Positions 1 through 56,779 of a stretch of 64,000 nt of DNA are shown here, one piece after another (positions within the stretch are counted from its first letter, which is position 1; every line of letters starts with the position of its first letter). A program made the position numbers and the translations under genes. The notes beneath the pieces were generated by a model. It was given only the letters and a program-made list of their open reading frames with translations. It did not search any database and had not been told where the DNA came from. Source of the DNA: an uncultured Gammaproteobacteria bacterium (lineage in GTDB: Bacteria; Patescibacteriota; Patescibacteriia; UBA1558; 2-01-FULL-52-15). The DNA lies in NCBI GenBank assembly GCA_964540995.1, contig CAZIOU010000001.1, positions 6,742 through 70,741 on the forward strand, in the 5' to 3' direction.

Positions 1-3
1 AGA

Positions 4-2991
4 TTGGCCAAAGAATCATTACCGTTATTTACTGCTTCAGCTGATTTCACCACCAGCCCCAGCTTCACCAATGCCAAAGTAACAACCTATGACGCTCAAG
101 GCAGACCATTGACCGAAACGACTCCGACCGGCACTACTAGCTATTCTTATGATGGTTTGGTGACAACCATTACCGATCCTCGTACCAAGGTCAAGAAATT
201 GACCAATGATGCTTTCGGCAATCTGGTCAAAGTAGAGGAGTCAAATAGTGGAGCCACCTATACCACCAACTATGAATATAGTCTGACCAATAAGCTCAAG
301 AAGATTACTGACGCTCTGGGCAATATCCGTACTTTCACTTATGACGCTCTGGATAATCTCACCCAGCAAGATATGGTACACACTGCTGGCACGAGCAATC
401 CAGGACATTGGACCTATACCTATGATAAGAACGGTAATGTCTTGAGCAAAGTCGATCTCAAATCCCAAACAAGCAATTACAGTTACGATGCGTTGAACCG
501 TCTCTTGACGGAGAATTTCACGGGCAAGACCGGTACCGAATACACCATGACCTATGATCAAGGTACCAAGCAGCTCGGACGCTTGACTCGCGTGGTTGGT
601 AATGATGGTCTCACGACAGTCTATACCTACGATCCACAAGGCAAACCTCTGACAGTTGTGAGAACGATCGATGGTACTAGTTATACCTTAAGCTACGCCT
701 ATGATTGGAATGGCAACGTTACCTCTATTACCTATCCTGAAGGTGAACGTATCGATTATCTCTACAATGCGGTTGGTCAGATCAATCAGGTGAATAAAGT
801 GAAGAATGGCACGACTACAGTATTAGCTTCTGGTGTCACGTACACGCCGATGGGACAGATCGCTCATCTGCAGCGTGGTAATAATGTCACCACGGATTAT
901 ACCTACGATGCCAATCAGAATTATCGGCTGACTCGTATCCGTACTGTCAGTGGTTCGGTCGTGCTGCAAGATATTGCTTATACCTACGATGCTAATGGTA
1001 ATATCCTGACGATCGTCGATAGTTCACAGACAGCTTTGGCTAAGAACGTCGCTTATGGTTATGATGATTTGAATCGTTTGATTTCAGCCACTGTCACCAA
1101 CTCTGGTTCCGGTGCCAATTATAGTCATACTTATAGCTATGACGCTATTGGTAATATTCTCTCCAGTACACCAGTGGGTAGCTATACCTATACCTTGAGT
1201 AATCCTCATCAAGCTCGTACCGCTGGCTCGACTACCTTGACCTACGATAACAATGGCAATGTAGTCTATATCAATCAAGATCATCAGAGTTACGATTGGC
1301 GCGATCGCATGACCTATAGTGCTGTCGCTGGATCGGCCGATCATACTGAATATGTCTATGATCATGCTAACCAACGAGTCAAGAAACACACGGTAGTCTA
1401 TACTTCGGGTGGCGGAGGAGTCGATTGTGAGAATCATCCAGACCAATGCCCCGATCCAATCTTCGGTATCCCCAGAGAATTACCGCCGGTAGTGACACCA
1501 CCGCCTGGGAAGCTGCCTTTGCCGATTGAAGTGATTGTGCCGACGACGGATGGAGAGGGGCAAGATTCAATAATCAATAATCAAGACTCAAACAATATTC
1601 AAGTTCCAAGTTTCAATAATCAAACAGGAGAGGTGACTGCGCAGACGGTGGAAACAGAAAGTACTTCGACTGCTCCTATATTGACTGTGGAGCCAGTAGA
1701 ACCATTACCAATAGGTATTTTCGAGGCGCCAACTACTACCCCTCAGCCAGAGGCTGATATTGACCCTGTAGTCATACCAGAGCCAGTAGTGATAGAACCA
1801 CTGCCTTCAATGGAAGATGTGGCGACTACGACCGACCAATCAGCCTTATCTCTTGAAAATCCCACCCCAGACGCAGCTCCTGCAGCCCAAGACATTGCTA
1901 CCTATTATATTGATAAATACTACGAGAAAGAGTGGAATGGTGTCGCTCGAAATCACTATTTCTTAGGTAATATCAACCTAGCAGTAGAGCCTTTATCTGG
2001 CCCAAATAGTGGTATATACTATGTCTTGACTGACCACCTTGGTTCAAGTTCTTTGACTACCAATAGTTACGGCAATATGATAGACCGTACGGAGTACACT
2101 CCTTATGGTGCTATCGTAGCTACTGCCACCACCCAAGATATTGGCAATAAGTATAAGTTTACTGGTAAGGAGCTTGATGGAGAGACTAACCTGAGTTACT
2201 TCGGAGCGAGGTACTACAACCAGGCGGTGGGACGGTTTATGGCGGTCGATCCGGCGCTGCAGTTTTTGACAGATCCAGAGAAATTGAAGGGTATTACTAA
2301 CGGTGATCAACGAAAAATTCTTTCAGATCCACAAAATCTAAATGAATATTCGTACGCCAGAAATAATCCCGTTCTACTTGCAGATCCGGATGGTCAGTTT
2401 GTATTCCTAGTCCCCTTTATTGCAATGTATGCTGTACCTATTGCTATAACTACCGTAGCTATGATTGGGTCTATGTATGCCACTGCTGAGTTTAGTCAAG
2501 CCGTTGGTTATACTATGGAAAATGATTATAAAAGCTCACAACAACATATTGATAATGGTATGGTTACTCTGGCAATGACAGGATCGGGCGTAGGCGCAAT
2601 ATATGAAATGGGCAATTACAATCAAAATCTAAGAGATGAGAATGCACGAGCTGAGGCGAAAGCAAATGGAATGCCATACGAACATATAAAAAATGTTCAG
2701 CCTGATACATATATTAAGAGTCAGCTCGATAAAGCAAGTGGTAAAATAGTTAACGGAAATATTGTTGTACCGGAGGAGTATAGTGTTAGACCATCCAACC
2801 TTGGTATGGGTACGAGATATGTTAGTACTTCGAACACGAGTTATAGCTTACGACTCTCCCCTGGCAATAGTACTACTCCATACCCATATATAAGAGTACA
2901 TACCCCACAAGGTTATGTTAATATATATGGAGAACCTACCGGATATAGAGCCGAGGAGAGTCATATGAGAATCTTTTCAATAACTAAATAG
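4..2991 (+). CDS. RHS/YD-repeat polymorphic toxin (5' end cut by window edge); YD-repeat shell, Pro/Thr/Glu-rich linker, RHS core, then a ~200-aa unassigned C-terminal toxin tip
   Basis: Many YD repeats (YTYDALDNL, YSYDALNRL, YTYDANGNIL...). RHS-core signature YYVLTDHLGSSSL...YTPYGAI...FTGKELDGETNLSYFGARYYNQAVGRFMAVDPA...LLADPDGQF, followed by an unrelated C-terminal tail. The frame is open to nt 1. Confidence 0.85.
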   Translation: MAKESLPLFTASADFTTSPSFTNAKVTTYDAQGRPLTETTPTGTTSYSYDGLVTTITDPRTKVKKLTNDAFGNLVKVEESNSGATYTTNYEYSLTNKLKKITDALGNIRTFTYDALDNLTQQDMVHTAGTSNPGHWTYTYDKNGNVLSKVDLKSQTSNYSYDALNRLLTENFTGKTGTEYTMTYDQGTKQLGRLTRVVGNDGLTTVYTYDPQGKPLTVVRTIDGTSYTLSYAYDWNGNVTSITYPEGERIDYLYNAVGQINQVNKVKNGTTTVLASGVTYTPMGQIAHLQRGNNVTTDYTYDANQNYRLTRIRTVSGSVVLQDIAYTYDANGNILTIVDSSQTALAKNVAYGYDDLNRLISATVTNSGSGANYSHTYSYDAIGNILSSTPVGSYTYTLSNPHQARTAGSTTLTYDNNGNVVYINQDHQSYDWRDRMTYSAVAGSADHTEYVYDHANQRVKKHTVVYTSGGGGVDCENHPDQCPDPIFGIPRELPPVVTPPPGKLPLPIEVIVPTTDGEGQDSIINNQDSNNIQVPSFNNQTGEVTAQTVETESTSTAPILTVEPVEPLPIGIFEAPTTTPQPEADIDPVVIPEPVVIEPLPSMEDVATTTDQSALSLENPTPDAAPAAQDIATYYIDKYYEKEWNGVARNHYFLGNINLAVEPLSGPNSGIYYVLTDHLGSSSLTTNSYGNMIDRTEYTPYGAIVATATTQDIGNKYKFTGKELDGETNLSYFGARYYNQAVGRFMAVDPALQFLTDPEKLKGITNGDQRKILSDPQNLNEYSYARNNPVLLADPDGQFVFLVPFIAMYAVPIAITTVAMIGSMYATAEFSQAVGYTMENDYKSSQQHIDNGMVTLAMTGSGVGAIYEMGNYNQNLRDENARAEAKANGMPYEHIKNVQPDTYIKSQLDKASGKIVNGNIVVPEEYSVRPSNLGMGTRYVSTSNTSYSLRLSPGNSTTPYPYIRVHTPQGYVNIYGEPTGYRAEESHMRIFSITK

Positions 2992-2993
2992 AT

Positions 2994-3362
2994 ATGAATA
3001 TTAACGATTCTTCAAAAAAATTAATCAAGGAGGTTATTGAAACCTTTGCGTCTGAGGAAATTCAAAATCGAGCCTGGTTAAAGAAAGATCCTAAAATTCT
3101 TCTGGATCCTGAGGATTTTTTCGAGTGGTTCGGGGATATAGGTATCACAAAGAATGCAAAACCTGATTATTTGACGCAAGAGGAATGGGAATTAATAAAT
3201 AATTTCTTGAATGACCAAGAGAAATTTATTAATGATTATGGTGATTATGTATTTAATAATATAGGTCGCCATCTAGAACGGATGTTGACATTTGACCCAT
3301 GGATCGATTTTCGTGGCAAAGCTCAGAAAGTATTATTCGAGTTAGAGAAGTTGGGTTGGTAG
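2994..3362 (+). CDS. putative cognate immunity protein for the RHS C-terminal toxin
   Basis: 122-aa acidic ORF starting 3 nt after the RHS stop, AT-rich like the toxin tip. The position is typical of RHS immunity genes. No recognisable family. Confidence 0.45.
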   Translation: MNINDSSKKLIKEVIETFASEEIQNRAWLKKDPKILLDPEDFFEWFGDIGITKNAKPDYLTQEEWELINNFLNDQEKFINDYGDYVFNNIGRHLERMLTFDPWIDFRGKAQKVLFELEKLGW

Positions 3363-3381
3363 AATTTTAATCTACTATCCT

Positions 3382-3410
3382 ATGTATTGATTGATCACCT
3401 TGGCTCTAGT
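3382..3410 (+). pseudogene. short remnant resembling the start of an RHS core (YVLIDHLGSS), possible relic of a displaced RHS C-terminal cassette
   Basis: tatgtattgattgatcaccttggctctagt translates to YVLIDHLGSS, versus YVLTDHLGSSS in the intact RHS core at ~2020-2050. It stops after 5 more codons. Confidence 0.3.
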
Positions 3411-3722
3411 TTTTGGTTCAAAACATAATTTGTGATTCCTATCAAAAAACCCTCAAATCCCCAGAATTCCTCCCCCTAGGAATTCTTGTGGTTGTCGGCC
3501 TTATCTTACGCTTCTGGAATCTCGCTATCACCGAAGTAGCCTTCGATAATGCTACCAATACTTTTCGTGCGGTGGGATGGTCTGGGATCCAGGCTAGTTT
3601 CGAGGCGCAAGGTATAACGCCGAAACAAATTATCCCTGACAGTCTGGGCGCCGAAGCCTTCCGAGTATATTTCGTCGCACTGCGCTAGTCAGAGCGAAGC
3701 AAACTTGGTATAATAACCAAGT

Positions 3723-4172
3723 ATGAGCCCTGTCAAAGACAAGAAAAATATTATTCCTGCCAACGTTGCCTCTGCTCACAGAGTTCGACGTTTTTTTGTT
3801 GCTATTATTCACCAACAGTCATTCACCTTTCTCTTGTTAATACTAGTTATCGTTGGATTAGCTAGTTATTTCTATCCGGCCAGTCTCAAGCCATCGCAGC
3901 AAGCGCATATTGGAGATACGTTGGGTTGTAGCACTGCCAAAGCTAGTGATCGTCTGAAACAAACCCAGCTAAGAGCCAGCGATCAGCTCAAAGTACTGAT
4001 TAGTTTCCGTCAACAACCAAGTGCAGAGCAGATTCAGGGCTATGCATCACAAGGTATTACCTTATACCCTGATTCTTGGCTGTTTGATTATCTGATGGGC
4101 GAGACTTCCTATAGCCATCTATGCAATCTGTTATCTGATAACGCTATTACGTACGTTGATCTCGTAAACTAA
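3723..4172 (+). CDS. hypothetical membrane-anchored protein
   Basis: 149-aa ORF with one hydrophobic segment. A TATAAT box 12 nt upstream of the ATG (possible leaderless transcript). Its stop overlaps the pgk start (TAATG). Confidence 0.3.
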   Translation: MSPVKDKKNIIPANVASAHRVRRFFVAIIHQQSFTFLLLILVIVGLASYFYPASLKPSQQAHIGDTLGCSTAKASDRLKQTQLRASDQLKVLISFRQQPSAEQIQGYASQGITLYPDSWLFDYLMGETSYSHLCNLLSDNAITYVDLVN

Positions 4173-5332
4173 TGAAATTACGCACTCTCAAAGATATCAA
4201 GTCAGTCCGCGGACAGCGCGTATTGATCCGTCTCGATCTCAATGCGCCAGTTATCGGTGGTCACCTCGAATCGTCGGATTTGTGGAAATTACGAGCCTCG
4301 ATTCACACGGTAGAACATTTGGCCGAGCACGGTGCCAAGGTGATCATTGTGTCACATTTTGGTCGTCCGGACGGCAAGAAGGTTGTTGCTACCAGCTTAC
4401 GACCCATTATTCGTAAGTTTAGTCAGATGGTGGGGCGACCGATTGCACTCTGGTCAGATCATCCATCCAAGCTGGAAGCGAGAAGTAAGAAGCTAGAAGA
4501 AGGTCAGATAGTTGCCTTGGAGAATATTCGCTGGTATCCAGGGGAAGAGAAGAACGATCCTACGTTTGCCAAGACTCTAGCAGCGTTAGCAGACATCTAT
4601 GTTAATGATGCTTTCGGTGTTATTCAGCGCACGCACGCTTCGACTGTCGGCGTAGCCAAACTAGTGCCTTCGTATGCTGGATTTTTGCTTGAATATGAAG
4701 TCAAAGCGCTGTATAATGTAGTATCCCGTAGTAAACGGCCTATTGTTGTAGTTCTGGGAGGATCCAAGATTAGTACCAAGCTAGGACTGCTCAAAGTACT
4801 CCTAACCAAAGCTGATTTCATCCTTCTCGGTGGCGCTCTTGCCAACAATGTCTTGCAGGCGCGAGATGTCGAAGTCGGTAAGTCGCTGATCGATAAGGAC
4901 GCCAAGCTGTTACGGCAGTATATTTATAGCAATAAGCTCAAAGTCCCGATTGATGTCCGCGTAGCTACTTCACGTACGTCCAAGAGTCGGCTGACAGCGG
5001 TGTCACAAGTACGCAGTAACGAGATAATTTATGACATCGGCCCAGATACAGTCGAGTGGTATGCCAAAGTATTGCGTCATGCCAAGACCGTGATCTGGAA
5101 TGGCCCGTTAGGCTTATTCGAAGATCCGCGTTATGGTGCGAGTACACGGGAGCTGATCAAGATTTTGGCGCTGTCACAGGCCAAGGCCTACGTCGGCGGA
5201 GGAGAGACAGTCAAAGCTGTTTTGCAGTCGCGCTTGGAAGATAGTTTGCACTTTGTCTCGACCGGTGGAGGCGCGATGTTGGCCCTGCTAGAGAAGAATG
5301 ATTGGTCAGCGTTGAAAGTGTTGAAGAAGTAG
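4172..5332 (+). CDS. pgk: phosphoglycerate kinase
   Basis: 386 aa, typical PGK N-terminus (RVLIRLDLNAPV...) and overall length and motifs. Confidence 0.95.
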   Translation: MKLRTLKDIKSVRGQRVLIRLDLNAPVIGGHLESSDLWKLRASIHTVEHLAEHGAKVIIVSHFGRPDGKKVVATSLRPIIRKFSQMVGRPIALWSDHPSKLEARSKKLEEGQIVALENIRWYPGEEKNDPTFAKTLAALADIYVNDAFGVIQRTHASTVGVAKLVPSYAGFLLEYEVKALYNVVSRSKRPIVVVLGGSKISTKLGLLKVLLTKADFILLGGALANNVLQARDVEVGKSLIDKDAKLLRQYIYSNKLKVPIDVRVATSRTSKSRLTAVSQVRSNEIIYDIGPDTVEWYAKVLRHAKTVIWNGPLGLFEDPRYGASTRELIKILALSQAKAYVGGGETVKAVLQSRLEDSLHFVSTGGGAMLALLEKNDWSALKVLKK

Positions 5333-5337
5333 ATCGT

Positions 5338-5450
5338 TATTCGTTATTCGTTATTAGTTATTAGGGAGAACTCTCTTCCCGAATAACTAGTAACTAATGA
5401 CTAATCACATTCCCCAAATAACAAATAACTAATAACTAATAACTAATTCT
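5338..5450. repeat. AT-rich intergenic spacer built from inverted/direct copies of the TAACTAATAAC (GTTATTAGTTA) motif; probable terminator hairpin for pgk
   Basis: gttattcgttattcgttattagttattaggg...cccgaataactagtaactaa, then aaataacaaataactaataactaataactaat. The same motif recurs at 16163, 41241, 46923 and 46978. Confidence 0.5.
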
Positions 5451-6203
5451 ATGAACCAACTGACAGCCTGGCAGAAAACGTTACTTATCGTTACTGCCGC
5501 CTTCTTCCTACTCATGGGAGGATTCGTCAAATTACGCGAACTTAATTTTGTCGGTAAATCGCCTGATTTCCAGCCTACTATTTACGTCAGTGGCGAAGGT
5601 AAGGTGCAAGCCGTGCCTGATGTGGCCAAGATTAGCTTCGGTTACACAGTAACCAAGCCAACAACTGCCGAAGCCCAGAAAGATAATACCGACAAAATGA
5701 ATGCCTTCATCGCTGCCGTCAAGAAGGAAGGTGTCAATGATAAAGATATTAAGACTGCCAATTTCAATATCTATCCTGAATATAACTATGTTGATGGTCG
5801 ACAAGTACCTCGTGGTTATACCGTTAATCAGAATGTCGACGTGACCTTACGCGACACTTCCAAAGCGCAACGTCTGATCCAGCTGGCTGGTGAACAGAGT
5901 TTGAATCAAGTCGGTGGACTCAATTTCGTCGTCGATAACCAACAGAAATATTTAGACGAAGCGCGCGCTATTGCTCTTAAGCAAGCCAAAGCCAATGCCG
6001 AATCGATCGCCAAGAATGCCGGCTTCCGCTTGGGTCGTCTGATGAACTATTCCGAAAATACCCAACCCTATCCACAGCCAATGTACGCTGATAAAGGTGC
6101 TATGGGTATGGGTGGTGCCGCTTCGGTCCCAGCTCCAACCATCGCCGTTGGTAGTAACGAAATCTACGTTCAAGTCAGTCTAAATTACGAAATCAAGCAG
6201 TAA
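5451..6203 (+). CDS. SIMPL/DUF541-family secreted protein (26-kDa periplasmic immunogenic protein-like)
   Basis: N-terminal signal/TM segment, then VSGEGKVQAVPDVAKISFGYTV. Architecture is typical of PF04402. Confidence 0.6.
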   Translation: MNQLTAWQKTLLIVTAAFFLLMGGFVKLRELNFVGKSPDFQPTIYVSGEGKVQAVPDVAKISFGYTVTKPTTAEAQKDNTDKMNAFIAAVKKEGVNDKDIKTANFNIYPEYNYVDGRQVPRGYTVNQNVDVTLRDTSKAQRLIQLAGEQSLNQVGGLNFVVDNQQKYLDEARAIALKQAKANAESIAKNAGFRLGRLMNYSENTQPYPQPMYADKGAMGMGGAASVPAPTIAVGSNEIYVQVSLNYEIKQ

Positions 6204-6210
6204 AACCGGC

Positions 6211-7488
6211 ATGCCGGATACTATCAAGCGCGTCACAGCCAGTGAGATTCTCGATTCGCGCGGCAACCCTACAATTGAAGTCACAGTAGAATTGCAAAGC
6301 GGTATCGGAGCTAAGGCTTCGGTACCGTCTGGTGCGTCTACGGGTGCAGCGGAAGCCTTGGAATTGCGCGATAATGATCCTAAGCGTTATGGTGGCCAAG
6401 GAGTGCTTCGAGCTTGTCATAATGTGGAGACAGAAATCAATCAGGCGCTACAAGGTGTGCGTGTCACCGAACAGAAGAAGATCGATGATTTGATGCGTCA
6501 GCTTGATGGTACGCCCAATAAGTCTCGTCTCGGCGCCAATGCTATCCTCGGCGTCTCGCTGGCTTGCGCTCGCACTGCCAGTAAATCGTTAGCTGTACCT
6601 TTGTATCGTTATATCGGTGATTTGATCGGCAACAAACATTTCGTCTTACCGATCCCACTGATGAATGTGATAAATGGAGGACTGCACGCCAGCACCAATC
6701 TCAATATTCAAGAGTTCTGGGTCATCCCCAAGCAGCAGACTAGTTTCCATGATCGACTGCGTTGCGGTAGTGAGATTTTCCAGCATCTTGGTACGATCTT
6801 ACGTCAGGCTGGCCGTGATACTGACCTGGGCAACGAAGGCGGCTATGCGCCTGATCTGGATAGTCATAAGCAGGCTTTTGAGTATTTACTGCAAGCGATT
6901 GAAAGTTCCGGCTATCAGGCTGGTCGGGATTGTTACTTAGGTATGGATGCGGGTGCTTCGGTATTTTATAACGTTGATAAAGCAACCTACAGTTTGAAAT
7001 TAGAAGATAGTGAATTTACTCGTGATGAATGGATTGAGTATGTCATGAATCTGTTACACACCTATCCTATGGCCGCTATCGAAGATCCGCTAGCCGAAGA
7101 AGATTGGACCAGCTGGCAACTACTGACTCAGCAAGTGAAAGAGAAGTTTCCGCAGCTACAACTCATTGGCGATGATCTATTTACGACCAATGTTACGCGA
7201 CTACAGAAAGGTATAGATATGGGTGTTGCTAACGCCATATTGATCAAACCCAATCAAATCGGCACCTTGAGTGAGACCTTAGACTGTATTACACTAGCCA
7301 AGAAGCAGGGTTATCAGACAGCAGTATCGCATCGTAGCGGTGAGACAATTGATAGCTTCATTGCTGATCTCGCGGTCGGCGTAGCGTCAGAGTTTATCAA
7401 GACAGGTTCAGTAGCTCGCGGTGAGCGTTCCGCCAAATATAATCGACTGTTAGCGATCGAACAAGAACTCTATGGCATCCAACGATAA
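6211..7488 (+). CDS. eno: enolase
   Basis: MPDTIKRVTASEILDSRGNPTIEVTV..., 425 aa, canonical enolase. Confidence 0.95.
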   Translation: MPDTIKRVTASEILDSRGNPTIEVTVELQSGIGAKASVPSGASTGAAEALELRDNDPKRYGGQGVLRACHNVETEINQALQGVRVTEQKKIDDLMRQLDGTPNKSRLGANAILGVSLACARTASKSLAVPLYRYIGDLIGNKHFVLPIPLMNVINGGLHASTNLNIQEFWVIPKQQTSFHDRLRCGSEIFQHLGTILRQAGRDTDLGNEGGYAPDLDSHKQAFEYLLQAIESSGYQAGRDCYLGMDAGASVFYNVDKATYSLKLEDSEFTRDEWIEYVMNLLHTYPMAAIEDPLAEEDWTSWQLLTQQVKEKFPQLQLIGDDLFTTNVTRLQKGIDMGVANAILIKPNQIGTLSETLDCITLAKKQGYQTAVSHRSGETIDSFIADLAVGVASEFIKTGSVARGERSAKYNRLLAIEQELYGIQR

Positions 7489-9031
7489 AAAATTATGTGT
7501 CTTGGTAATTGTTGACGGGTGGGGTATCGGCCCGGCCGCCAAAGGTAATGCTATTACCACTGCCAAGTTGCCGCACTACCATCAATTGGTGAAGAAATAT
7601 TCCTATACCACCTTGAAAGCTGCCTCCAAATCAGTTGGTTTACCAATGGGACAAGAAGGTAATTCTGAAGCGGGTCATATGAATATTGGCGCTGGTCGCG
7701 TGGTGGAGCAGGATGCGGTAGTTATTTCCAAAAGTATCAATAATGGCACTTTTTTCCGCAACCCGGCCTTCATGGGAGCTTTGGCTCATGTCCAGAAATA
7801 TAATTCTGATGTTCATCTGGTTGGTATGATTACCGGCAATCAGAGTGCGCATTCTGACCCGGATCATTTGATTTCGCTCATAACCCTTTTCAATCGCAAG
7901 AAAGTACGTAATGTCTATCTGCACTTATTTACTGATGGACGCGATGCTCCGCCGTACTATGCTCAGAAACTTTTCCAATCCTTTCACGGTGTTTTCAATT
8001 CGTATGCTACAGTGGCGACGGTCATGGGACGCTTCTATGGTATGGATCGCAAGAAAGAATGGTCCCGCACCCAATTGGCGTTCGACGCCATGGTGTCTGG
8101 CAAGGGGCTCAAAGAAACAACTCCTGAAGACGCGGTACTTCATGCCTATGCTCGCGGTGAGAGCGATGAGTTTATCAAACCAACGATTATTGTCGATGAG
8201 GCGGGTAAGCCCAAGGGGCTGATCAAGAATAATGACGCCGTAGTATTTTTCAACTTACGATCTGATCGTGCTCGGCAAATGTGTAAGCCGTTTGCCCAGA
8301 CCGATTTCTACCAAGCCAACAAAGGATCGTTCAAACCAACGGCCAAACCCAAGAATCTGTTCCTCGTGGCCATGACTGATTTCGGTCCTGACATGCCCAA
8401 ATTGATGACTGCCTATCCCAGCCGTGAGATTGTCGAGACGTTACCGATGTCACTGCCGGGATACAGGCAGCTAGCGATCGCTGAAAGTGAGAAGTTTGCT
8501 CACGTGACCTATTTCTTCAACGGCGGCTATGACCATATCGTGGCTGGTGAAGCGCGCGAGATGATACCATCACCCAACCTGAAACATTACGAAGATGAAC
8601 CTTTGATGAGTCTGGATAAGACGACAGCTCGAGTGGTAACGGCTATTCAGAAGCGAGAGTTTGATTTCATCGTCATGAACATTGCCAACGCCGATATGAT
8701 AGCTCACAGCGGTAAATTCTGGGCCACGGTCAAAGCTTGCGAATATACTGATGCTGCTCTGGGGAAAATTACCAAAGCAGTTCTGGCCAAAGACGGCATC
8801 TGTATCATCACCGCCGATCATGGTAATGCCGAGATGGTGATCGATCCCAAGACCGGCGAGCCCGAGACTGAGCATTCAACCAATCCAGTGCCTTTCATCG
8901 TGGTCAAATCAGGTCCTAAACTCAAATTACGCAAGAACGGTATCTTGGGTGATATTGCTCCAACAATTTTGGAATTGCTGCAGCTGGAGAAACCGCATGA
9001 TATGACCGGCAAAACTTTGATCACACACTAA
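7472..9031 (+). CDS. gpmI: 2,3-bisphosphoglycerate-independent phosphoglycerate mutase (copy 1)
   Basis: LVIVDGWGIGP, GNSEAGHMNIGAGR (catalytic Ser), DGRD, AHVTYFFNGG, ADHGNAE; 519 aa. Confidence 0.9.
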   Translation: MASNDKKLCVLVIVDGWGIGPAAKGNAITTAKLPHYHQLVKKYSYTTLKAASKSVGLPMGQEGNSEAGHMNIGAGRVVEQDAVVISKSINNGTFFRNPAFMGALAHVQKYNSDVHLVGMITGNQSAHSDPDHLISLITLFNRKKVRNVYLHLFTDGRDAPPYYAQKLFQSFHGVFNSYATVATVMGRFYGMDRKKEWSRTQLAFDAMVSGKGLKETTPEDAVLHAYARGESDEFIKPTIIVDEAGKPKGLIKNNDAVVFFNLRSDRARQMCKPFAQTDFYQANKGSFKPTAKPKNLFLVAMTDFGPDMPKLMTAYPSREIVETLPMSLPGYRQLAIAESEKFAHVTYFFNGGYDHIVAGEAREMIPSPNLKHYEDEPLMSLDKTTARVVTAIQKREFDFIVMNIANADMIAHSGKFWATVKACEYTDAALGKITKAVLAKDGICIITADHGNAEMVIDPKTGEPETEHSTNPVPFIVVKSGPKLKLRKNGILGDIAPTILELLQLEKPHDMTGKTLITH

Positions 9032-9032
9032 T

Positions 9033-10616
9033 ATGGAAGCCACACCACGACCCAAACCATTGGTACTCATTATTTTGGATGGATGGGGGATTGCACCTCC
9101 GTCTCGTGCCAATGCTATCTCGCTAGCCAAGACACCCAACATGGATGCTTATATGAACAAGTATCCGACGATGTCACTGCAAGCCGGAGGAGAATCAGTC
9201 GGACTGGCGTGGGGTGAGATGGGTAATTCGGAAGTTGGTCACTTGAGTATTGGTTCTGGACGCATCCTGTACCAGAGTTTACCGCGTATTACCCGTGCTA
9301 TCTATGATCGTAGCTTTTTCACCAATCCAGCCTTCTCGGCTGCTTGTGAACAGGTCAAGAAGAATAAGAAGAAATTGCATCTGATAGGTTTGGTTAGTTC
9401 TGGTGGTGTGCATAGCTTCAACGAACATTTATATGCCTTGTTAGAATTAGCGGCCGAGCAGAAGATTGATCAAGTCTATATTCATGCCTTCCTTGATGGA
9501 CGCGATACTCCTTATAATAGCGGCAGTAATTTCATCGCCAAATTGAAAGATAAAATCAAACAAATCGGTGTCGGCAAGATCGCTACTTTGTCCGGACGTT
9601 TCTATGCTATGGATCGTGACAATCATTGGGAGCGTGTGGAGCAAGCTTATAAAGCGATGGTCAATGGTGAGTCAGCTATTCAAGCCGAGGATCCACTGGC
9701 AGCGATTGAAGCTTCTTATGCTAAGCAAATCTATGACGAGCAGTTAGAGCCGACGGTCATGACTGAGAAAGGTGTCCCCGTGGCCAAAATTGAAGCTGGC
9801 GATGCTATCATATGTTTTAATTTCCGCGCTGATCGGGTACGACAGATTACTAAGGCCTTTGTCCTGCCGGGATTTGATAAATTTCCTCGCACCTACATGC
9901 GGGACCTGGTCTATATCACCATGACCGAGTACGAGAAAGATTTGCCAGTGCAGGTAGCTTTCCCGCCGGAGAAGGTAGAGACGCCAGTAGCCAAAGTTGT
10001 CAGCGAAGCGGGCTTGAAGCAAATGCATATTGCCGAGACAGAGAAGTATGCTCACGTGACCTATTTCTTTAACGGCGGACAGGAGAAGACCTTCCCCGGA
10101 GAAGATCATGTCTTGATACCGTCGCTCAAGGTTTCTTCCTATGATCAGAAGCCGGCCATGAGTGCGCGGGAGATAACCAACCGAGTGATACAGGAGATTC
10201 GCGAAGTCAAATACGATTTCATTGTTATCAATTTTGCTAACCCTGACATGGTAGCGCATACCGGCAACTTACAAGCCACGATCGAAGCTTGTGAAATTAC
10301 TGATGATTGTATTGGTAAGATTACCGATGTCGTCTTATCGTATGATGGTGCCGTTATCGTTACGGCTGATCACGGTAATGCCGAAGGATTGTTTAATTTA
10401 CAAACCGGTGAGATCGATAAAGAGCATAGCAATACACCGGTGCCTTGTATCTTCATCGGTCGCCAATGGGAAGGTAAGAACGTGGCTGGCGGTGTGACTG
10501 GTACCGATCTTTCTAGTATGGTTTCTTCGGGGGTCTTATCAGATGTCGGCCCGACCGTCGTCAAAATATTAGGCCTCAAGAAGCCGACGGAGATGACGGG
10601 AGTCCCGCTAATATGA
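9033..10616 (+). CDS. gpmI: 2,3-bisphosphoglycerate-independent phosphoglycerate mutase (copy 2, tandem paralog)
   Basis: LVLIILDGWGIAPP, GNSEVGHLSIGSGR, DGRD, AHVTYFFNGG, ADHGNAE. All catalytic motifs retained. Confidence 0.9.
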   Translation: MEATPRPKPLVLIILDGWGIAPPSRANAISLAKTPNMDAYMNKYPTMSLQAGGESVGLAWGEMGNSEVGHLSIGSGRILYQSLPRITRAIYDRSFFTNPAFSAACEQVKKNKKKLHLIGLVSSGGVHSFNEHLYALLELAAEQKIDQVYIHAFLDGRDTPYNSGSNFIAKLKDKIKQIGVGKIATLSGRFYAMDRDNHWERVEQAYKAMVNGESAIQAEDPLAAIEASYAKQIYDEQLEPTVMTEKGVPVAKIEAGDAIICFNFRADRVRQITKAFVLPGFDKFPRTYMRDLVYITMTEYEKDLPVQVAFPPEKVETPVAKVVSEAGLKQMHIAETEKYAHVTYFFNGGQEKTFPGEDHVLIPSLKVSSYDQKPAMSAREITNRVIQEIREVKYDFIVINFANPDMVAHTGNLQATIEACEITDDCIGKITDVVLSYDGAVIVTADHGNAEGLFNLQTGEIDKEHSNTPVPCIFIGRQWEGKNVAGGVTGTDLSSMVSSGVLSDVGPTVVKILGLKKPTEMTGVPLI

Positions 10617-11692: not shown

Positions 11693-12115
11693 CGGCAAGA
11701 AATACACCACTGAATAGGTCAACGCTATCCCAGCAACGGTCCCTACAATCACCTGCGCCGGTGTATGACCCAAACGCTCTGTCAGCACCGGATATTTATA
11801 TTCTTCAGCGTCTGGTAACTCTTTGACTAAGCGGTTAATCATGCGAGCGTGCACTCCGAGCTGACGGCGGAAACCACTGGCGTCACGGATGATCACGATG
11901 AAGAGGACAAAAGCTACGGCCAGCGCAGCATCACCTAATCCTTGATCAAGGTAGAGGAGTGTGACTAATGAAGAGGCCAAGGCAGAATGAGCCGAAGGCA
12001 TGCCACCGTATTCATTCAAATGTTCCCAAGAGAAATTACCACGGAAGAACTCCAGCAGCAGTTTGGCTAGCTGGACGACGACCATGATCCCGAAAGGTAA
12101 TAGTAATAGACGCAT
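11684..12115 (-). CDS. divergent PAP2-family (DUF212/PF02681-like) membrane phosphatase
   Basis: GGMPSAHSA motif, characteristic of the divergent PAP2 / acid phosphatase-vanadium haloperoxidase-related family; 143-aa membrane protein. Confidence 0.55.
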   Translation of the reverse strand: MRLLLLPFGIMVVVQLAKLLLEFFRGNFSWEHLNEYGGMPSAHSALASSLVTLLYLDQGLGDAALAVAFVLFIVIIRDASGFRRQLGVHARMINRLVKELPDAEEYKYPVLTERLGHTPAQVIVGTVAGIALTYSVVYFLPWI

Positions 12116-37328: not shown

Positions 37329-38987
37329 ATGTCATCTAAGTATTTTATCTACGCGCGCAAATCCTCCGAAGCTGAAGATCGGCAGGTTTTATCTATTGAG
37401 TCTCAAATCGATGATTTAACTGCTTTAGCAAACAAGCAGGGTTATCAGATTGCTGACATTTTGACTGAGGCAATGTCTGCGAAAGCTCAGGGTAGGCCTA
37501 TCTTCACATCTATGATAGAGAGAATTACAGCTGGTGAGGTAAGGGGTATTATTTGTTGGAAAGTTGATCGGCTGGCGCGAAATATGATAGATGGCGGTTG
37601 GGTTATGGATAGTCTTCAAAATGGTGTTATAGAGCATATAGTGACCCCTGAGCGCGAATATAGGCCCAAAGATAATGTACTACTAATGTCTGTCGAATTC
37701 GGAATGGCTAATCAGTTTATTCGTGATCTAAGCTCAAATGTGAAACGTGGCATACGAAAGAAAATAGAAAAAGGTCAGCTCCCTGGCGTCGCACCTTTGG
37801 GGTATATGAATCAAAAGAATCGAGAGACGGCCGAGAACCAGATTATGCCTGACCCTGATCGTTTTCAGATGATGCGGATGCTTTTTGATGAATTCTTAAA
37901 GGGTACTCACACAATTCGTACCCTGCAGGGGTTGGCACATGATTGGGGTTTCCGTAGTCCACAGAAAAGAAAAGTCGGAGGAAACTTTATGGGATCAAGT
38001 ACTGTCCACAGAATACTCACTAACCCCTTCTATTGTGGTTTTCTAAGATTTAATGGAGACATTCATAAAGGCTCACATCAGCCCATGATTACTGTAGACG
38101 AGTTTGATCGTATTCAGTTAATACTTGGGAGAAAAGGGAAGCCTCGGCCACAAAAGCATAAATTCCCATTTACAGGGATTATGGAGTGTGGCGAATGCGG
38201 AGGCAGTGTGACGGCAGAGATAAAGAAAAAGAGCTTAAAGTCAGGCGAAGTAAAATTCTACACTTACTATCATTGTACAAAGCGACTTAATCCTATGTGC
38301 ACTCAAGCATGTATTGAAACAGCCGAATTAGAGAAACAGATTGAGAGCTACTTAGAATCCATCACTATTCCTGAAGAGTTTAAAGACTGGGCTATTAGAT
38401 GGCTCAATAAGCTTAACGATCAAGAGATCAACCACAGGTCAACAATTTATATAAACCAGCAAGATACGAGAAATAAAATTCAGAACGATGTTGATGAATT
38501 AACAAAGATGAGGTTTAGAAATCTCATCAACGATGAAGAGTATATAAAACAAAAAAACCTACTTCTTAAAGAGTTGAGAAGTATGGACGAAAGACTACGA
38601 GATACTGAAGATCGTGCGTCTAAGTGGCTGGAGCTATCTGAAAAGACTTTCGATTTAGCTTGCTATGCAAAGTCATGGTTTCAAATTGGCGATATAGAGC
38701 AACGTCGCATGATTTTGACCTCACTTGGTTCGCACCAAGTGTTATTTAACAAGAAACTTACAATTACCTTGGATAAACCATTGTCAATCATCAGTGATAC
38801 GGCTGAAGAGATACGCGCAGATTGCACTCGGTTAGAACCAGAGAAAATACTGTCAGGACAAACAAAAAACAGAGCTTCAGACTCCATTTCTTCTCGATGG
38901 CTCCCCACACGGGACGGAGTTCGAACCTTTTCTAATTCAACCATGAAGCCTGAATCTCGTCTAGGCAGGCAGAAAAGAAAGGTATGA
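37329..38987 (+). CDS. large serine recombinase (phage-integrase type, resolvase/invertase catalytic domain + recombinase + zinc-ribbon + coiled-coil)
   Basis: FIYARKSSEAEDRQ...IICWKVDRLARN (catalytic Ser domain); CGECGG...YYHCTK zinc ribbon; coiled-coil C-terminus; 552 aa. Confidence 0.85.
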   Translation: MSSKYFIYARKSSEAEDRQVLSIESQIDDLTALANKQGYQIADILTEAMSAKAQGRPIFTSMIERITAGEVRGIICWKVDRLARNMIDGGWVMDSLQNGVIEHIVTPEREYRPKDNVLLMSVEFGMANQFIRDLSSNVKRGIRKKIEKGQLPGVAPLGYMNQKNRETAENQIMPDPDRFQMMRMLFDEFLKGTHTIRTLQGLAHDWGFRSPQKRKVGGNFMGSSTVHRILTNPFYCGFLRFNGDIHKGSHQPMITVDEFDRIQLILGRKGKPRPQKHKFPFTGIMECGECGGSVTAEIKKKSLKSGEVKFYTYYHCTKRLNPMCTQACIETAELEKQIESYLESITIPEEFKDWAIRWLNKLNDQEINHRSTIYINQQDTRNKIQNDVDELTKMRFRNLINDEEYIKQKNLLLKELRSMDERLRDTEDRASKWLELSEKTFDLACYAKSWFQIGDIEQRRMILTSLGSHQVLFNKKLTITLDKPLSIISDTAEEIRADCTRLEPEKILSGQTKNRASDSISSRWLPTRDGVRTFSNSTMKPESRLGRQKRKV

Positions 38988-49907: not shown

Positions 49908-52900
49908 ATGTCTAATTTAGCTAAGAAGTTCTTCGTCGTCTCTTTGGTTTTTGCCACTGTGATGTTGAACGTAGCATCGGTACTCGTACCGTCTGCTCAC
50001 GCTTTGGCAGCTGGTGACTTGATCAAAGGTCCTAACTCCGATGCAGTTTACTACATCGGTGCGGACATGAAGAAATACGTTTTTCCTGATGGCAAAACAT
50101 ATTTCACTTGGTACAAGAATTTCAATGGTGTTAAGAAGGTAACCGTCAATGATTTGGATATGTATCCAAATGGCGGTGCCGTTACTTACCGTCCTGGAAC
50201 AAAATTGGTAAAGACTGTTGATTCCAACAAAGTCTATGCCGTTGAACCAGGTGGTACGCTTCGCTGGATCAAGGATGAAGCGACAGCTATTGCCCTTTGG
50301 GGTAGTAACTGGGCCAAGAATGTAAATGATGTAATCCCAGGTTATTTCTCAGCCACTTATAAGGTTGGTGCTGACCTCGGATCCATGTACCCAACTGGTC
50401 AATTGATCCAAAAGAATGGTGATTCTACTATCTACTTCGTAGATGGTTCCACTATTCGTCCGTTTGCCTCTGGTGACGCCTTCACTGTAAACGGTTTCGA
50501 CTATGCCTTCATCGTGAAGGTTGCCAATACCACTGGTTACACCACTGGTAGCTCGATCACCGGTCAAGAGAGTGCTTTGAGTTCAATCAACGCTTCCTCT
50601 TCTGTCCCAGCTGTTGCTGGTGCTTTGACCGTTTCATTGGCCGCTGATACGCCAGCTTCTGGTGTCGTAGTGTCCAATGTTTCTCGAGTTCCGTTCACTA
50701 AGGTCAATCTGACCACTGGTAACAACCCTGTTACCATCGATACGATCGTCGTCAAACGCGGTGGTATTGGTCAGGATGGTGCATTTGCTTCCGTCGACAT
50801 TTTAGACGGTAAGACCATGTTGCCATTTGATCCGAATTCCAAGAGTTTCAATTCCAATCACGAAGCTAATTTCACCAAGGATATTACCATCCCTGCTAAC
50901 ACTACTTGGCCAATTTACTTGGCTGGTAATATTGGTGCGGTTGGTAATACCTACGCAGGTGAATTCCCAGCTTTGGGTATTTCAGCTATTACATTGACAG
51001 CTGGTTCATCCTTGAGTGGCTCTTTGCCAATCATGGGTAACACACAGACCTTGAATGGTACGATTAACGTCGGAACGGTTGCCGTCTCTCGAGGTGCATA
51101 TGCAAATGCGACATCAACTCAAGAGGTGGGCAAGACCAACTATACCTTCTTTTCGTTTGCAGTCGCTGCTAATACAGAAGACATGAATATTACTAATGTC
51201 TCTGTATATCAAAGAGGCAATGCGACTCTTGGAACTGATTTGGTTAACGCCAAATTGTTGAAGGATGGTACTAAGATTGCTGATGGAACGTACTCTGACA
51301 AATATATCAACTTCACTTTGGCTACGCCATTGAAGATTGATAAGGGTCAGACGGCTCAGTTGCAGGTACAGGCTGATATAGCAGGCGGATCTACCCGCAC
51401 CGTTCAGTTAGCTTTTTATAGAGCTACTGATTTGGTATCAAAGGGTATGACTTATGGCTATAATGTAACACCAACCTTCTCGGGTACAGGTTACAAAGGT
51501 TCGGTAACGGCTACTCCGATATTCACCGCCGAGACCACTACAATCTCTAAAGGAAGTTTAGTTATTGAGAGAAGTAATACAGTTGGCTCTAACAACATCG
51601 GTATCGGTAATGATCAGGTATTAGGCGCGTTTAAGTTTACAGTAAAGGGCGAACCAATTGATGTTTCGGCTCTCACTGTATATATTGCATCTTCTACCTC
51701 AGCTATTACTGACGCTTCTGCTGCTTTACAGAATGTAAAGTTGATAGATTCTAACGGTGTAACTGTAGCCGGTCCTTCTGACTTTACTACTCACACTCTA
51801 AACATTGCTTTCACGGATACCTTTACGGCTCCGGTGGGAGAGAATGTTTACAAGATTGTTGCTAATGTAATGAGTAACGGTGGTTGGACTTCTAATGATA
51901 CGATTTGGGCTGGAATTAATACTCCGTCCAATAAGATCACAACACGCGGTCAGGTAACTGGTGAGTCAATCACAGCCACCCCCGGTAGCGACATCTCAAC
52001 TAACACCCAGACAATTAGAGGTGCTAAGTTGACTGTAACCCGCAACACCTTGCCGTCTACTGGCACTGTCGTGAAGGGCAGTCAAGATGTGCTCCTGGGT
52101 TCTTGGACCTTCGATGCTGCGTCTGCTGGTGAGGATATCCGCATCACTTCATTACTCTTCGCTGCTTCTTCCTCCAATGCAACTAACTTGACCGTCTATG
52201 ATGGCAAGTACGGTTCTGGCGGTGTAGCTAAGAGTCCTGTCAACGATGCTCCTTCTAGCGATGATGACAACGCTACTTCAACCTTTGCTTTTGACACACC
52301 TATCGTTATTACGAAGGGTACGACAAAGACAATTGAATTAGTTGGTGATATCAATACTGGTGCCAACACTGGTGACTCTGCTCAGTTTGGATTGACCGAT
52401 ACTGTTGCTGCTACTAACGCTTCAGTTGTTGCTTACGGTGTCCAGACAGGCAACCGCGCCAATATTACCTTAGTCGCTGATAACGGTGCTGTGCTCAGCT
52501 ATGCTGGTGCTGGTGCTGTAACTGTAAGTTCTTACAATAACCCAAGTAATGGATTGGTTCGCGCTGGCGCCACTGGTGTTACCTTTGGTTCCATCAAGTT
52601 TGACGCTTCATCTGCGGAAGATCTAGACTTGGATCAGTTGGTTATTGGTGTTGCTGATGGCGGTATCACTGGTACTGCTACTGGTAACTACCAGGATGTG
52701 ACTAAAGTTTACATCTATGATGGTTCTACCAAGTTAGGAGAAGCCACCATTCCGTCAACTGGTACCTATACTATTGACTTCAATAACGGTACTTTGACAG
52801 TTCCGAAGGGCGCTTCTAAAACCCTGACTATTAAGGTAGATGTAGGTACGATTGATACCTCTGCTGATGATAGCCCTGCTACACCAGCCGCAGATATCCT

Positions 52901-53681
52901 CTTCAAGTTAGACGGCGGCACTGCTGGCTTCAAGTTCACTGGTGTTTCCAGTAACGCGACAGCCACAGAAACCAACAATGGTTCCACTACTTCATCCATG
53001 GTCATACATAAGTCTCTTCCTTCTGTCACCTTCTCTCAGAGCGGTGCTACATTAGGAGCGGCTTCATCCTTGGCCAATGGCAGCAATGACCTGTACAAGT
53101 TTAAGGTTAGCGCTGATGCTGCTGGTGGCGATGTCTTGCTCTACCGAACGTCGTTTGAATTGACGACTGGAGGAGGCGCAGATACAACCCTAACCAATTG
53201 TTTCGTCAAGGATCAGAACGGATCGACTATCACTTCAGTTACCACCCCAACCTCACGCGGTGAAGCTGGTAACGGTAAGAATGTCGTATCTTTCGTCTTC
53301 GATAACCCATCTATCTCGGTAGGTGATACGAAAGAAGCTCTGTCAGTATCTCCTGGCGATTCAAAAACCTATACCTTGAATTGTACGGTTGCTAATGCCG
53401 GATCCGGTGACTTCGTCGCTGTATCTCTGCTTGGCGACACCGCTTCCAGTACTCCGGCTGCCTCTCATGGTACTCCGGCTGCTACTGGTCAGAACAAAGC
53501 TGATGCTTGGTCTGCATACCAACAAGGTAACTTCATCTGGTCAGATAACTTTAAGAACCTTGGACTCGCTACGAACGATGCTAATGCTACCGCCTATGGT
53601 CAGTGGTACAATGGTTACTTAGTCAGCGGTTTGGGACAGAATTCAACCACCACTGCTTACACAGTTGGTTGGTCATCCTAA
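49908..53681 (+). CDS. large secreted Thr/Ser/Gly/Ala-rich surface protein (S-layer/adhesin-like; candidate glycoprotein)
   Basis: RBS aaggagat; signal peptide MSNLAKKFFVVSLVFATVMLNVASVLVPSAHALAAG; 1257 aa of beta-rich Ig-like repeats; no TM anchor. Confidence 0.8.
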   Translation: MSNLAKKFFVVSLVFATVMLNVASVLVPSAHALAAGDLIKGPNSDAVYYIGADMKKYVFPDGKTYFTWYKNFNGVKKVTVNDLDMYPNGGAVTYRPGTKLVKTVDSNKVYAVEPGGTLRWIKDEATAIALWGSNWAKNVNDVIPGYFSATYKVGADLGSMYPTGQLIQKNGDSTIYFVDGSTIRPFASGDAFTVNGFDYAFIVKVANTTGYTTGSSITGQESALSSINASSSVPAVAGALTVSLAADTPASGVVVSNVSRVPFTKVNLTTGNNPVTIDTIVVKRGGIGQDGAFASVDILDGKTMLPFDPNSKSFNSNHEANFTKDITIPANTTWPIYLAGNIGAVGNTYAGEFPALGISAITLTAGSSLSGSLPIMGNTQTLNGTINVGTVAVSRGAYANATSTQEVGKTNYTFFSFAVAANTEDMNITNVSVYQRGNATLGTDLVNAKLLKDGTKIADGTYSDKYINFTLATPLKIDKGQTAQLQVQADIAGGSTRTVQLAFYRATDLVSKGMTYGYNVTPTFSGTGYKGSVTATPIFTAETTTISKGSLVIERSNTVGSNNIGIGNDQVLGAFKFTVKGEPIDVSALTVYIASSTSAITDASAALQNVKLIDSNGVTVAGPSDFTTHTLNIAFTDTFTAPVGENVYKIVANVMSNGGWTSNDTIWAGINTPSNKITTRGQVTGESITATPGSDISTNTQTIRGAKLTVTRNTLPSTGTVVKGSQDVLLGSWTFDAASAGEDIRITSLLFAASSSNATNLTVYDGKYGSGGVAKSPVNDAPSSDDDNATSTFAFDTPIVITKGTTKTIELVGDINTGANTGDSAQFGLTDTVAATNASVVAYGVQTGNRANITLVADNGAVLSYAGAGAVTVSSYNNPSNGLVRAGATGVTFGSIKFDASSAEDLDLDQLVIGVADGGITGTATGNYQDVTKVYIYDGSTKLGEATIPSTGTYTIDFNNGTLTVPKGASKTLTIKVDVGTIDTSADDSPATPAADILFKLDGGTAGFKFTGVSSNATATETNNGSTTSSMVIHKSLPSVTFSQSGATLGAASSLANGSNDLYKFKVSADAAGGDVLLYRTSFELTTGGGADTTLTNCFVKDQNGSTITSVTTPTSRGEAGNGKNVVSFVFDNPSISVGDTKEALSVSPGDSKTYTLNCTVANAGSGDFVAVSLLGDTASSTPAASHGTPAATGQNKADAWSAYQQGNFIWSDNFKNLGLATNDANATAYGQWYNGYLVSGLGQNSTTTAYTVGWSS

Positions 53682-53753
53682 TCTCTGATTCTCATTTCGG
53701 GTAATCCACCCGAAATAACAATAACTACCCTCGAGCGAAAGCTTGGGGGTAGC

Positions 53754-54470: not shown

Positions 54471-54473
54471 ATT

Positions 54474-56771: not shown

Positions 56772-56779
56772 CGAATTGT

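Follow-up and report, generated by a model that had tools for sequence, protein, structure and literature searches.

The left end of the stretch of DNA analysed here, 64,000 nucleotides (nt) of contig CAZIOU010000001.1 (hereafter, the window), carries part of a rearrangement hotspot (RHS) gene followed by a small open reading frame (ORF). The question is whether these encode a polymorphic toxin and its immunity protein, as an earlier note on this DNA had proposed, and what such a toxin would do. There is very little doubt that nt 1 to 3410 represent an RHS toxin/immunity cassette. The fuller account, in which these nt form the variable 3' end of an RHS polymorphic-toxin locus on the chromosome of a Komeilibacteria-like bacterium of the candidate phyla radiation (CPR, or Patescibacteria), is held with reasonable confidence. 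Related loci and proteins are cited by L and P numbers. The following features were assigned, all on the plus strand:

1 to 1413, plus strand: YD-repeat shell, the 3' part of a large RHS gene that continues past the left edge (Pfam RHS_repeat, TIGR01643, colinear relatives)
1414 to 1884, plus strand: acidic, Pro/Thr/Glu-rich low-complexity insert of 157 amino acids (aa) in the shell (composition; relatives L003 to L005)
1885 to 2397, plus strand: RHS-associated core, the plug and aspartyl-protease region (TIGR03696, motif positions)
2398 to 2622, plus strand: putative pre-toxin module with a membrane-grade helix, the motif GQAVGYTMEx5QQHxDN and a second, Gly-rich hydrophobic stretch (phmmer, hydropathy)
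2674 to 2991, plus strand: predicted toxin domain of ~100 aa, stop codon included, of an uncurated family probably remotely related to the PT7 DNase toxin (phmmer, profile, AlphaFold2/Foldseek, hhalign)
2994 to 3362, plus strand: very probable cognate immunity gene, 122 aa, of an uncurated family (homologues downstream of toxin homologues)
3381 to 3410, plus strand: credible relic of an RHS core (YVLIDHLGSS), noncoding, in frame 3 (DNA similarity, motif)

Frame 1 was free of stop codons from nt 1 until the TAG at 2989 to 2991; the gene thus exceeds the left edge, and the ORF called at 4 to 2991 is a mechanical call rather than a gene start. Nine stretches matched Pfam RHS_repeat (PF05593, E 4.4e-36), and the NCBIfam model YD_repeat (TIGR01643) matched at E 4.5e-21. 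The NCBIfam model Rhs_assc_core (TIGR03696) was matched by ORF residues 698 to 798 (nt 2095 to 2397) at E 1.6e-17, with model positions 1 to 76 of 76 covered and 63.8 bits against a cutoff of 32.5. The core motif DHLGS was located at nt 2032 to 2046 and DPDGQ at nt 2383 to 2397, the latter within the boundary motif NPVLLADPDGQ (last nt, 2397), a variant of PxxxxDPxG(L) with Gln in place of Leu. Both Asp-Pro motifs of the plug (AVDPAL and ADPDGQ) were present, 40 residues apart; their canonical spacing is 17 residues (PMC8636562). The shell was colinear with RHS genes of 2,073 to 2,691 aa in L002 to L007 and L041. The Pfam and TIGR03696 matches and the motif positions therefore bear out the previous description of a YD-repeat shell with a core and a DPDGQ region. 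The AT-rich character noted for the tip was likewise evident, with a GC content of 0.396 and 0.377 in the two tip modules against 0.453 in the shell, and 0.274 at third codon positions (GC3) of the tip. GC content was 0.344 in the small ORF and 0.455 in the remaining window, where a motif search and tblastn found no further RHS core fragments.

The small ORF behind the tip is very probably the cognate immunity gene, because homologues occur directly downstream of four distant toxin homologues. Its ATG begins 2 nt past the RHS stop codon, and its length is 122 aa, as first stated. The flanking DNA of four toxin-domain homologues (L030, L031/L032, L033, and L034) was read, and at all four loci the next same-strand ORF, 3 to 36 nt downstream, was found to be homologous to the 122-aa ORF:

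L030, 5219 to 5632, same strand as the toxin: immunity homologue (BLASTP 2e-15 against the window ORF)
L033, 1049 to 1399, same strand as the toxin: immunity homologue (BLASTP 6e-11)
L034, 1569 to 1937, same strand as the toxin: immunity homologue (BLASTP 2e-9)
L031/L032, 4853 to 5200, same strand as the toxin: immunity homologue (18 to 19% identity in a multiple alignment)

These proteins have in common a motif FASEExQ..W close to the N-terminus and a second one, (E/D)PW, close to the C-terminus. Conservation beside the toxin tips thus supports the original suggestion of an immunity protein, with protection itself read from the gene linkage. The window protein has no signal peptide, and its target would therefore be cytoplasmic; it was predicted to be all helical by a single-sequence model of moderate confidence (predicted local distance difference test, pLDDT, 69). 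No Pfam or PDB sequence match was found, Foldseek of the model returned no significant PDB match, and a word-index homologue search retrieved only the ORF itself. PADLOC matches to Csn2 (E 1e-3 to 5e-3) and PDB matches of the immunity profile to TFIIH and choline kinase were rejected as spurious, as was a Pfam match to Peptidase_M24_C (18 bits against a cutoff of 28.9). At L030, a metagenomic contig, positions 1 to 9215 contained several RHS-fragment/immunity cassettes in a row, one with a Ribonuclease domain and a SUKH immunity gene and another comprising P0015 and its immunity homologue, followed by a complete SpvB/FG-GAP/RHS gene of >2,100 aa.

The tip after the core comprises 197 aa (nt 2398 to 2988), in agreement with the ~200-aa C-terminal domain with a hydrophobic start that had been described. 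It appeared, however, to consist not of a single domain but of two modules, a hydrophobic pre-toxin module and a toxin domain of ~100 aa. As a single sequence the tip had no Pfam, NCBIfam, PADLOC, or PDB-sequence match, and a word-index homologue search found nothing. An exhaustive phmmer search against 1.84 billion representatives retrieved 16 proteins, of which P0014, P0025, and P0027 were rejected as repetitive or low-complexity. Also rejected as spurious were PDB matches to PknD (E 0.019) and a cytochrome.

The toxin domain occupies tip residues ~93 to 197. In the same exhaustive search its homologues were P0015, P0016, P0018, P0020, P0024, P0026, and P0028 (E 2e-13 to 7e-4). It forms the C-terminus of RHS-core fragments in P0015, P0024, and P0026, stands behind PT-TG in P0028, and makes up the short standalone proteins P0016, P0018, and P0020. 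The 152-aa P0016 has a signal-peptide-like N-terminus and would therefore be exported without an RHS carrier. In an alignment of nine sequences G23, N27, P33, G46, R60, P71, Y72, and H97 were invariant, and all of these are kept in the window copy. No Pfam or NCBIfam model was found for any member of the family, and a word-index search with the alignment returned P0020 alone.

The family profile matched a single entry among PDB sequences, 8owu_B, at E 0.031. An AlphaFold2 model of the domain (pLDDT 87.6) showed one helix followed by an antiparallel sheet, and its top Foldseek match in the PDB was again 8owu, with a probability of 1.00, a template modelling (TM) score of 0.66 (target), and a root mean square deviation of 2.7 Å over 68 columns; all other PDB matches had E > 1. 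This entry is PT7(Bc) D37A complexed with its immunity protein PIM7(Bc) (Nachmias et al., bioRxiv 10.1101/2021.10.19.465003). Aligned by hhalign with a PT7 alignment built from Bacillus and Listeria plasmids, the family scored 82% probability and E 1e-5 over 87 columns at 13% identity. The similarity is remote, and phmmer with the single toxin sequence against the PDB gave no PT7 match. From the profile and the model together, the domain probably shares its fold and ancestry with PT7. The earlier statement that the tip belongs to no recognisable family thus holds for curated libraries, but the domain appears to have a remote relative in a published DNase. A match to a structural, nontoxic domain was also sought and none was found, the sole relative being a validated polymorphic toxin.

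What the domain would do in a target cell is less certain. PT7, whose fold was reported as new, is toxic in E. coli and yeast; purified point mutants act as a Mg-dependent non-specific endo-DNase that is abolished by EDTA and leaves tRNA uncut, and D37A and H47A abolish toxicity (bioRxiv 10.1101/2021.10.19.465003). The positions of both residues in the 8owu chain were read from its match to the B. mycoides wild type (100% identity after Ala 37 is changed back to Asp). By hhalign, D37 paired with a variable Met/Ser/Val and H47 with an invariant Tyr, a placement that is uncertain at 13% identity. This pairing weighs against a simple transfer of function. By sequence the domain fails the catalytic-residue test for strict PT7 membership, and its chemistry may therefore differ. 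By analogy with PT7, DNase activity specifically is the leading proposal, though one that falls somewhat short of being probable.

It is rather unlikely, but deserves attention, that the locus encodes a real toxin/immunity pair with a toxin that is not a DNase, its PT7 fold carrying an active site around the invariant Arg, Tyr, and His, e.g., a metal-independent RNase or another phosphotransferase. The lack of conservation of D37 and H47 would fit this, as would the family's own invariants (R60, P71-Y72, H97, and N27) and the helix-then-antiparallel-sheet model, a layout that is frequent in small RNase toxins. The immunity family is also unrelated to PIM7: hhalign of the immunity alignment against that of PIM7 gave 0.5% probability, and Foldseek of the immunity model missed 8owu. 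On the other hand, the structural search recovered no RNase or other enzyme fold, and three positions do correspond between this family and PT7: an Arg, the aspartate of D-x-N-G (Asn in the window copy), and the C-terminal His. The alignment near D37 and H47 is the uncertain part. An extension of this idea holds that the domain represents a separate enzyme family on the PT7 fold, with an Arg/Tyr/His active site and a different substrate or chemistry, and that the pre-toxin module is a self-contained membrane-entry device that would let Sec-secreted CPR RHS cocoons deliver interchangeable toxins into the cytoplasm of hosts or competitors without a type VI secretion system (T6SS), type VII secretion system (T7SS), or TcA; in this combined form it seems improbable. 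The preferred reading remains a PT7-related toxin paired with its immunity protein. Of the novelty claimed for the pair, the immunity family does look new, while the toxin is less novel than first suggested because it is a remote relative of the PT7 DNase.

The pre-toxin module comprises tip residues 1 to 75, with the pattern F-x-F-L-x-P ... GQAVGYTMEG ... AQQHFDN. Residues 1 to 23 have a Kyte-Doolittle mean of >2.0, hydrophobic enough for a membrane helix. The exhaustive phmmer search located the module directly behind the core in P0017, P0019, P0021, P0022, and P0023 (a 2,095-aa RHS protein), at E 2e-8 to 8e-6, each with a different C-terminal domain. In the same five proteins the core-tip boundary reads DDDGNF, DADGNF, or DKQGNF, and the canonical Pro of DPxG is absent. 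No Pfam model for the module was found. P0028, which bears the same toxin domain, has a PT-TG match (PF14449) at E 2.1e-7, whereas no such match was obtained between the core and the toxin domain of the window at E up to 1. The window therefore appears to carry a different pre-toxin module in the same position. Its hydropathy suggests membrane translocation, a role that can be put forward tentatively.

Cassette displacement, previously hinted at from the relic, was observed directly in related genomes (L002, L041, L042/L044, and L004), and cassette switching at this locus is considered well established. In L002 (87% nt identity) the main gene matched window 1 to 1533 and carried a different tip and an 86-aa ORF, its insert and core matching the window at only 74%. 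A downstream orphan fragment of L002 matched window 1772 to 2174, up to the contig end, at 87%, the genome background. The cassette of the window is therefore an orphan in L002, and the crossover relative to that genome lies within the insert, between nt 1533 and 1772. L041 was colinear until nt 2255, just past GRFMAVDP, with a different tip beyond, and homology with L041, L042, and L044 stopped at nt 2253 to 2255. L042 and L044, of the same species, had flanks 95 to 98% identical to the window, an insert and core at 79%, and another tip and immunity gene. L004 contained a main gene and at least four orphans, each beginning in the last YD repeats, and orthologous shells carried at least six different tips.

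The putative relic YVLIDHLGSS begins at nt 3381, 1 nt before the position first given, and 18 nt past the immunity stop codon. Its identification as a core remnant held: it is ~80% identical at the nt level to nt ~2014 to 2050, with a best ungapped score of 18, whereas none of 500 shuffles exceeded 12. A chance match with no bearing on cassette history is very unlikely. It would account for the shortness of the match (10 residues) and its weakness at the protein level (tblastn E 1.5 over the 61-kilobase [kb] remainder of the window), but not for the shuffle result, nor for a position, just past the immunity stop, where the orphan cassettes of relatives start. The relic also copies the most conserved core motif and has a decayed form, SYILIDHLSS, in the 96%-identical strain L001; it is absent from L041 and L042. 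Since cassette exchange was seen among the relatives, and independently of the relic, the 30 nt are credible as the scar of such an exchange.

The exchanged unit starts with the insert, for which a Pro/Thr/Glu-rich low-complexity composition had been claimed. This was confirmed by a Pro content of 17.8% against 3% in the remaining protein and a total of two Lys/Arg residues, whereas the length is 157 rather than ~170 aa. In L003, L004, and L005 the borders are conserved (RVKKHT ... ATYYIDKYYEKEW) and the content is variable. A Cys-x6-Cys pair (DCENHPDQCPDP) at the start of the insert, nt 1426 to 1449, is conserved in the same three loci; these are the sole cysteines in that part of the protein. 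No meaningful tandem repeat was found in the insert. L006 and L007 lack the insert, their last repeat joining the core directly. Because of its absence from these distant relatives, the insert is regarded as a clade-specific and probably disordered loop. It also acts as a recombination substrate, as the L002 crossover indicates.

A scan of species-representative genomes identified shell orthologues in L002 to L005, at 94%, 79%, 76%, and 71% aa identity, and more distant shell relatives in L006 and L007, near 40%. L004 is labelled Candidatus Komeilibacteria and L007 Saccharibacteria. The records of L002, L003, L005, and L006 carry the label "uncultured Gammaproteobacteria bacterium," probably a placeholder or mislabelling. 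The host was placed as Komeilibacteria-like (CPR/Patescibacteria) because L004 shares the shell at 76% and the same PGK-flanked locus. A common gene order was found in L001, L003, L004, and L041 to L044: RHS, PMT_2 glycosyltransferase, a 149-aa ORF, PGK, SIMPL, and enolase. Complete orthologues are 2,073 to 2,691 aa long, with N-termini that resemble signal peptides and, by Pfam, SpvB and FG-GAP domains ahead of the YD shell; L002 and L041 additionally have Laminin_G_3. Judged from these domains, the layout is that of a fused TcB/TcC-type cocoon that would be exported by Sec. In L002 (5003 to 11767, protein residues ~1000 to 1590) and L041, Laminin_G_3/concanavalin A (ConA)-like lectin and neurotoxin receptor-binding-like (Toxin_R_bind_N) domains sit between the FG-GAP propeller and the YD shell and may form a target-binding module.

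Several points weigh against the account as a whole. No TcA, T6SS, or T7SS partner was found in the flanks of L002 and L003 (~5 to 7 kb upstream and 2 to 8 kb downstream) that could carry the toxin into a target cytoplasm. Neither a signal peptide nor a delivery domain is visible within the window, the N-terminal part lying outside it. Next to P0019 (L035), the toxin homologue that diverges most, no related immunity gene was found. In addition, the window toxin departs from the family consensus (W to Y, DPxN to STSN, DxNG to NIYG, and HIPI to HMRI) and could be weakened or retargeted. Finally, the RHS gene may be interrupted in the source assembly, because P0013, the product annotated in the source genome, is 1,020 aa long and starts internally, compared with orthologues of 2,200 to 2,700 aa. 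Its start precedes the window by 24 codons and falls on a codon that corresponds to Val in L002.

Taken together, the short product, the departures from consensus, and a 1.4-kb deletion in the adjoining PMT_2 gene could indicate a decaying locus, in which the RHS gene is interrupted upstream, the toxin inactive, and the immunity gene kept as an orphan against the toxins of neighbours; the immunity protein, which differs by one residue between the source strain and L001, would be compatible with this. Such decay is nevertheless quite improbable. The window holds 996 codons without a stop or frameshift, every residue invariant in the toxin family is kept, and same-species strains have intact genes of 2,331 to 2,399 aa. 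Breaks in repetitive genes are, moreover, frequent artefacts of metagenome-assembled genomes (MAGs). In L002, at 11734 to 11767, the main RHS frame also breaks within the low-complexity insert, where the ORF ending at 11767 overlaps one in another frame starting at 11734; either a frameshift or misassembly of the repetitive sequence could account for this.

A functional toxin locus is therefore preferred, and the following mechanism is proposed. An RHS protein with the orthologue layout (Sec signal peptide, SpvB, FG-GAP propeller, a lectin domain in some, and YD shell) would be exported as a cocoon by Sec. The 197-aa tip would be held inside the shell, and the aspartyl-protease plug of the core would cut after DPDGQ and free it, as may be expected from the RHS family (PMC8636562). 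The pre-toxin module would most likely, if speculatively, insert into the target membrane or help the toxin to cross it. Once in the cytoplasm of the target, the ~100-aa PT7-fold domain would most likely act on nucleic acid, with DNA as a speculative substrate. The translationally coupled 122-aa cytoplasmic protein, whose co-conservation with the toxin was observed, would protect the producer by binding the toxin. As the comparison of relatives shows, the unit from the insert through the immunity gene is swapped with downstream orphan cassettes by homologous recombination, and the 30-nt core relic would be the scar of one such swap.

Further features were noted in the remaining window and in the corresponding regions of relatives. 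Window 3413 to 3688 retains part of a PMT_2 (ArnT-like) glycosyltransferase gene; compared with the gene of strain L001 (495 to 2180, 561 aa), ~1.43 kb is missing, with a 6-nt overlap at the junction (window 3576 to 3581). The gene is also full length in L041 and in L042 to L044, and the truncation may be genuine or may have arisen during MAG assembly. In L042 to L044 a block of ~6 kb (1869 to 7820), absent from the window and L001, separates the RHS cassette from PMT_2 and contains ORFs of 269 and 152 aa, Band_7, DUF2569, NfeD/S49, and a subtilisin-like S8 peptidase. After PGK, SIMPL, and enolase, window 7472 to 9031 and 9033 to 10616 encode adjacent cofactor-independent phosphoglycerate mutase paralogues, a pair kept in all close relatives. 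A large serine recombinase with Resolvase, Recombinase, and Zn-ribbon domains at 37329 to 38987 may mark an integrated mobile element. The region 49908 to 60906 contains a 1,257-aa ORF without a Pfam family, followed by two Wzy_C (O-antigen-ligase-like) proteins and another PMT_2 glycosyltransferase.

CPR bacteria, whose genomes are tiny, are believed to live attached to other bacterial cells, and their weapons against hosts or rivals are poorly known. Nothing specific on RHS toxins in CPR or Patescibacteria was found in the literature. The locus documents what appears to be a Sec-type RHS polymorphic toxin with orphan-cassette switching in a Komeilibacteria-like CPR lineage, and it would add three families new to curated libraries: a probable sister family of PT7, an immunity protein unrelated to PIM7, and a hydrophobic pre-toxin module common to at least six different toxins. 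If the module does mediate membrane entry, it would help to explain how RHS toxins gain access to the cytoplasm without an injection machine. The general picture of polymorphic toxins is unchanged, the locus being best regarded as a genuine and fairly ordinary polymorphic toxin with uncurated parts.

Among known systems, the toxin and immunity pair is best compared with PT7(Bc)/PIM7(Bc). Both toxins are small C-terminal polymorphic-toxin domains of about 75 to 100 aa with a predicted common fold and remote profile similarity, sharing the motifs IP..W, an Arg, D-x-N-G, and a C-terminal H-I-P, and PT7 also occurs behind PT-TG pre-toxin domains, like the family member P0028. They differ in that the aligned identity is 13% and the essential D37 and H47 of PT7 are not conserved here. 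The immunity proteins are unrelated, predicted to be all helical here and belonging to the FGDEV-motif PIM7 family there. The carrier is an RHS protein of CPR or other uncultured bacteria, as opposed to an LXG or PT-TG protein of Bacillus and Listeria.

The carrier itself resembles the WapA-type Sec-exported RHS/YD toxins of Gram-positive bacteria, which have a signal peptide, a YD shell, a DPxG core, a variable tip, and a downstream immunity gene. The orthologues share this layout, with N-termini that resemble signal peptides, and neither group is T6SS associated. Unlike WapA, the orthologues add SpvB and FG-GAP (TcB-like) domains before the shell, the shell contains the acidic Pro-rich insert of 157 aa, and the Asp motifs of the plug are 40 residues apart instead of the canonical 17. 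With respect to cassette exchange, Rhs orphan-cassette arrays that recombine with the main gene are reportedly known from Enterobacteria (Jackson 2009, Koskiniemi 2014, and Zhang et al. 2012 are said to describe them). In those arrays, as here, downstream promoterless modules of core fragment, tip, and immunity gene recombine with the main gene, and the tips have lower GC. Here, however, the repeated homology reaches beyond the core, through the insert into the last YD repeats, and crossovers are seen both in the insert and at the core end.

The N-terminal architecture, finally, is that of the TcB-TcC cocoon of Tc toxins, in which SpvB, FG-GAP, and an RHS shell surround an autoproteolytically released hypervariable C-terminal region (PMC8636562). 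The protein described here differs in being a single fused polypeptide, with no TcA-like translocator found within the L002 and L003 flanks already given. The presence of an immunity gene argues for a bacterial rather than an insect target.

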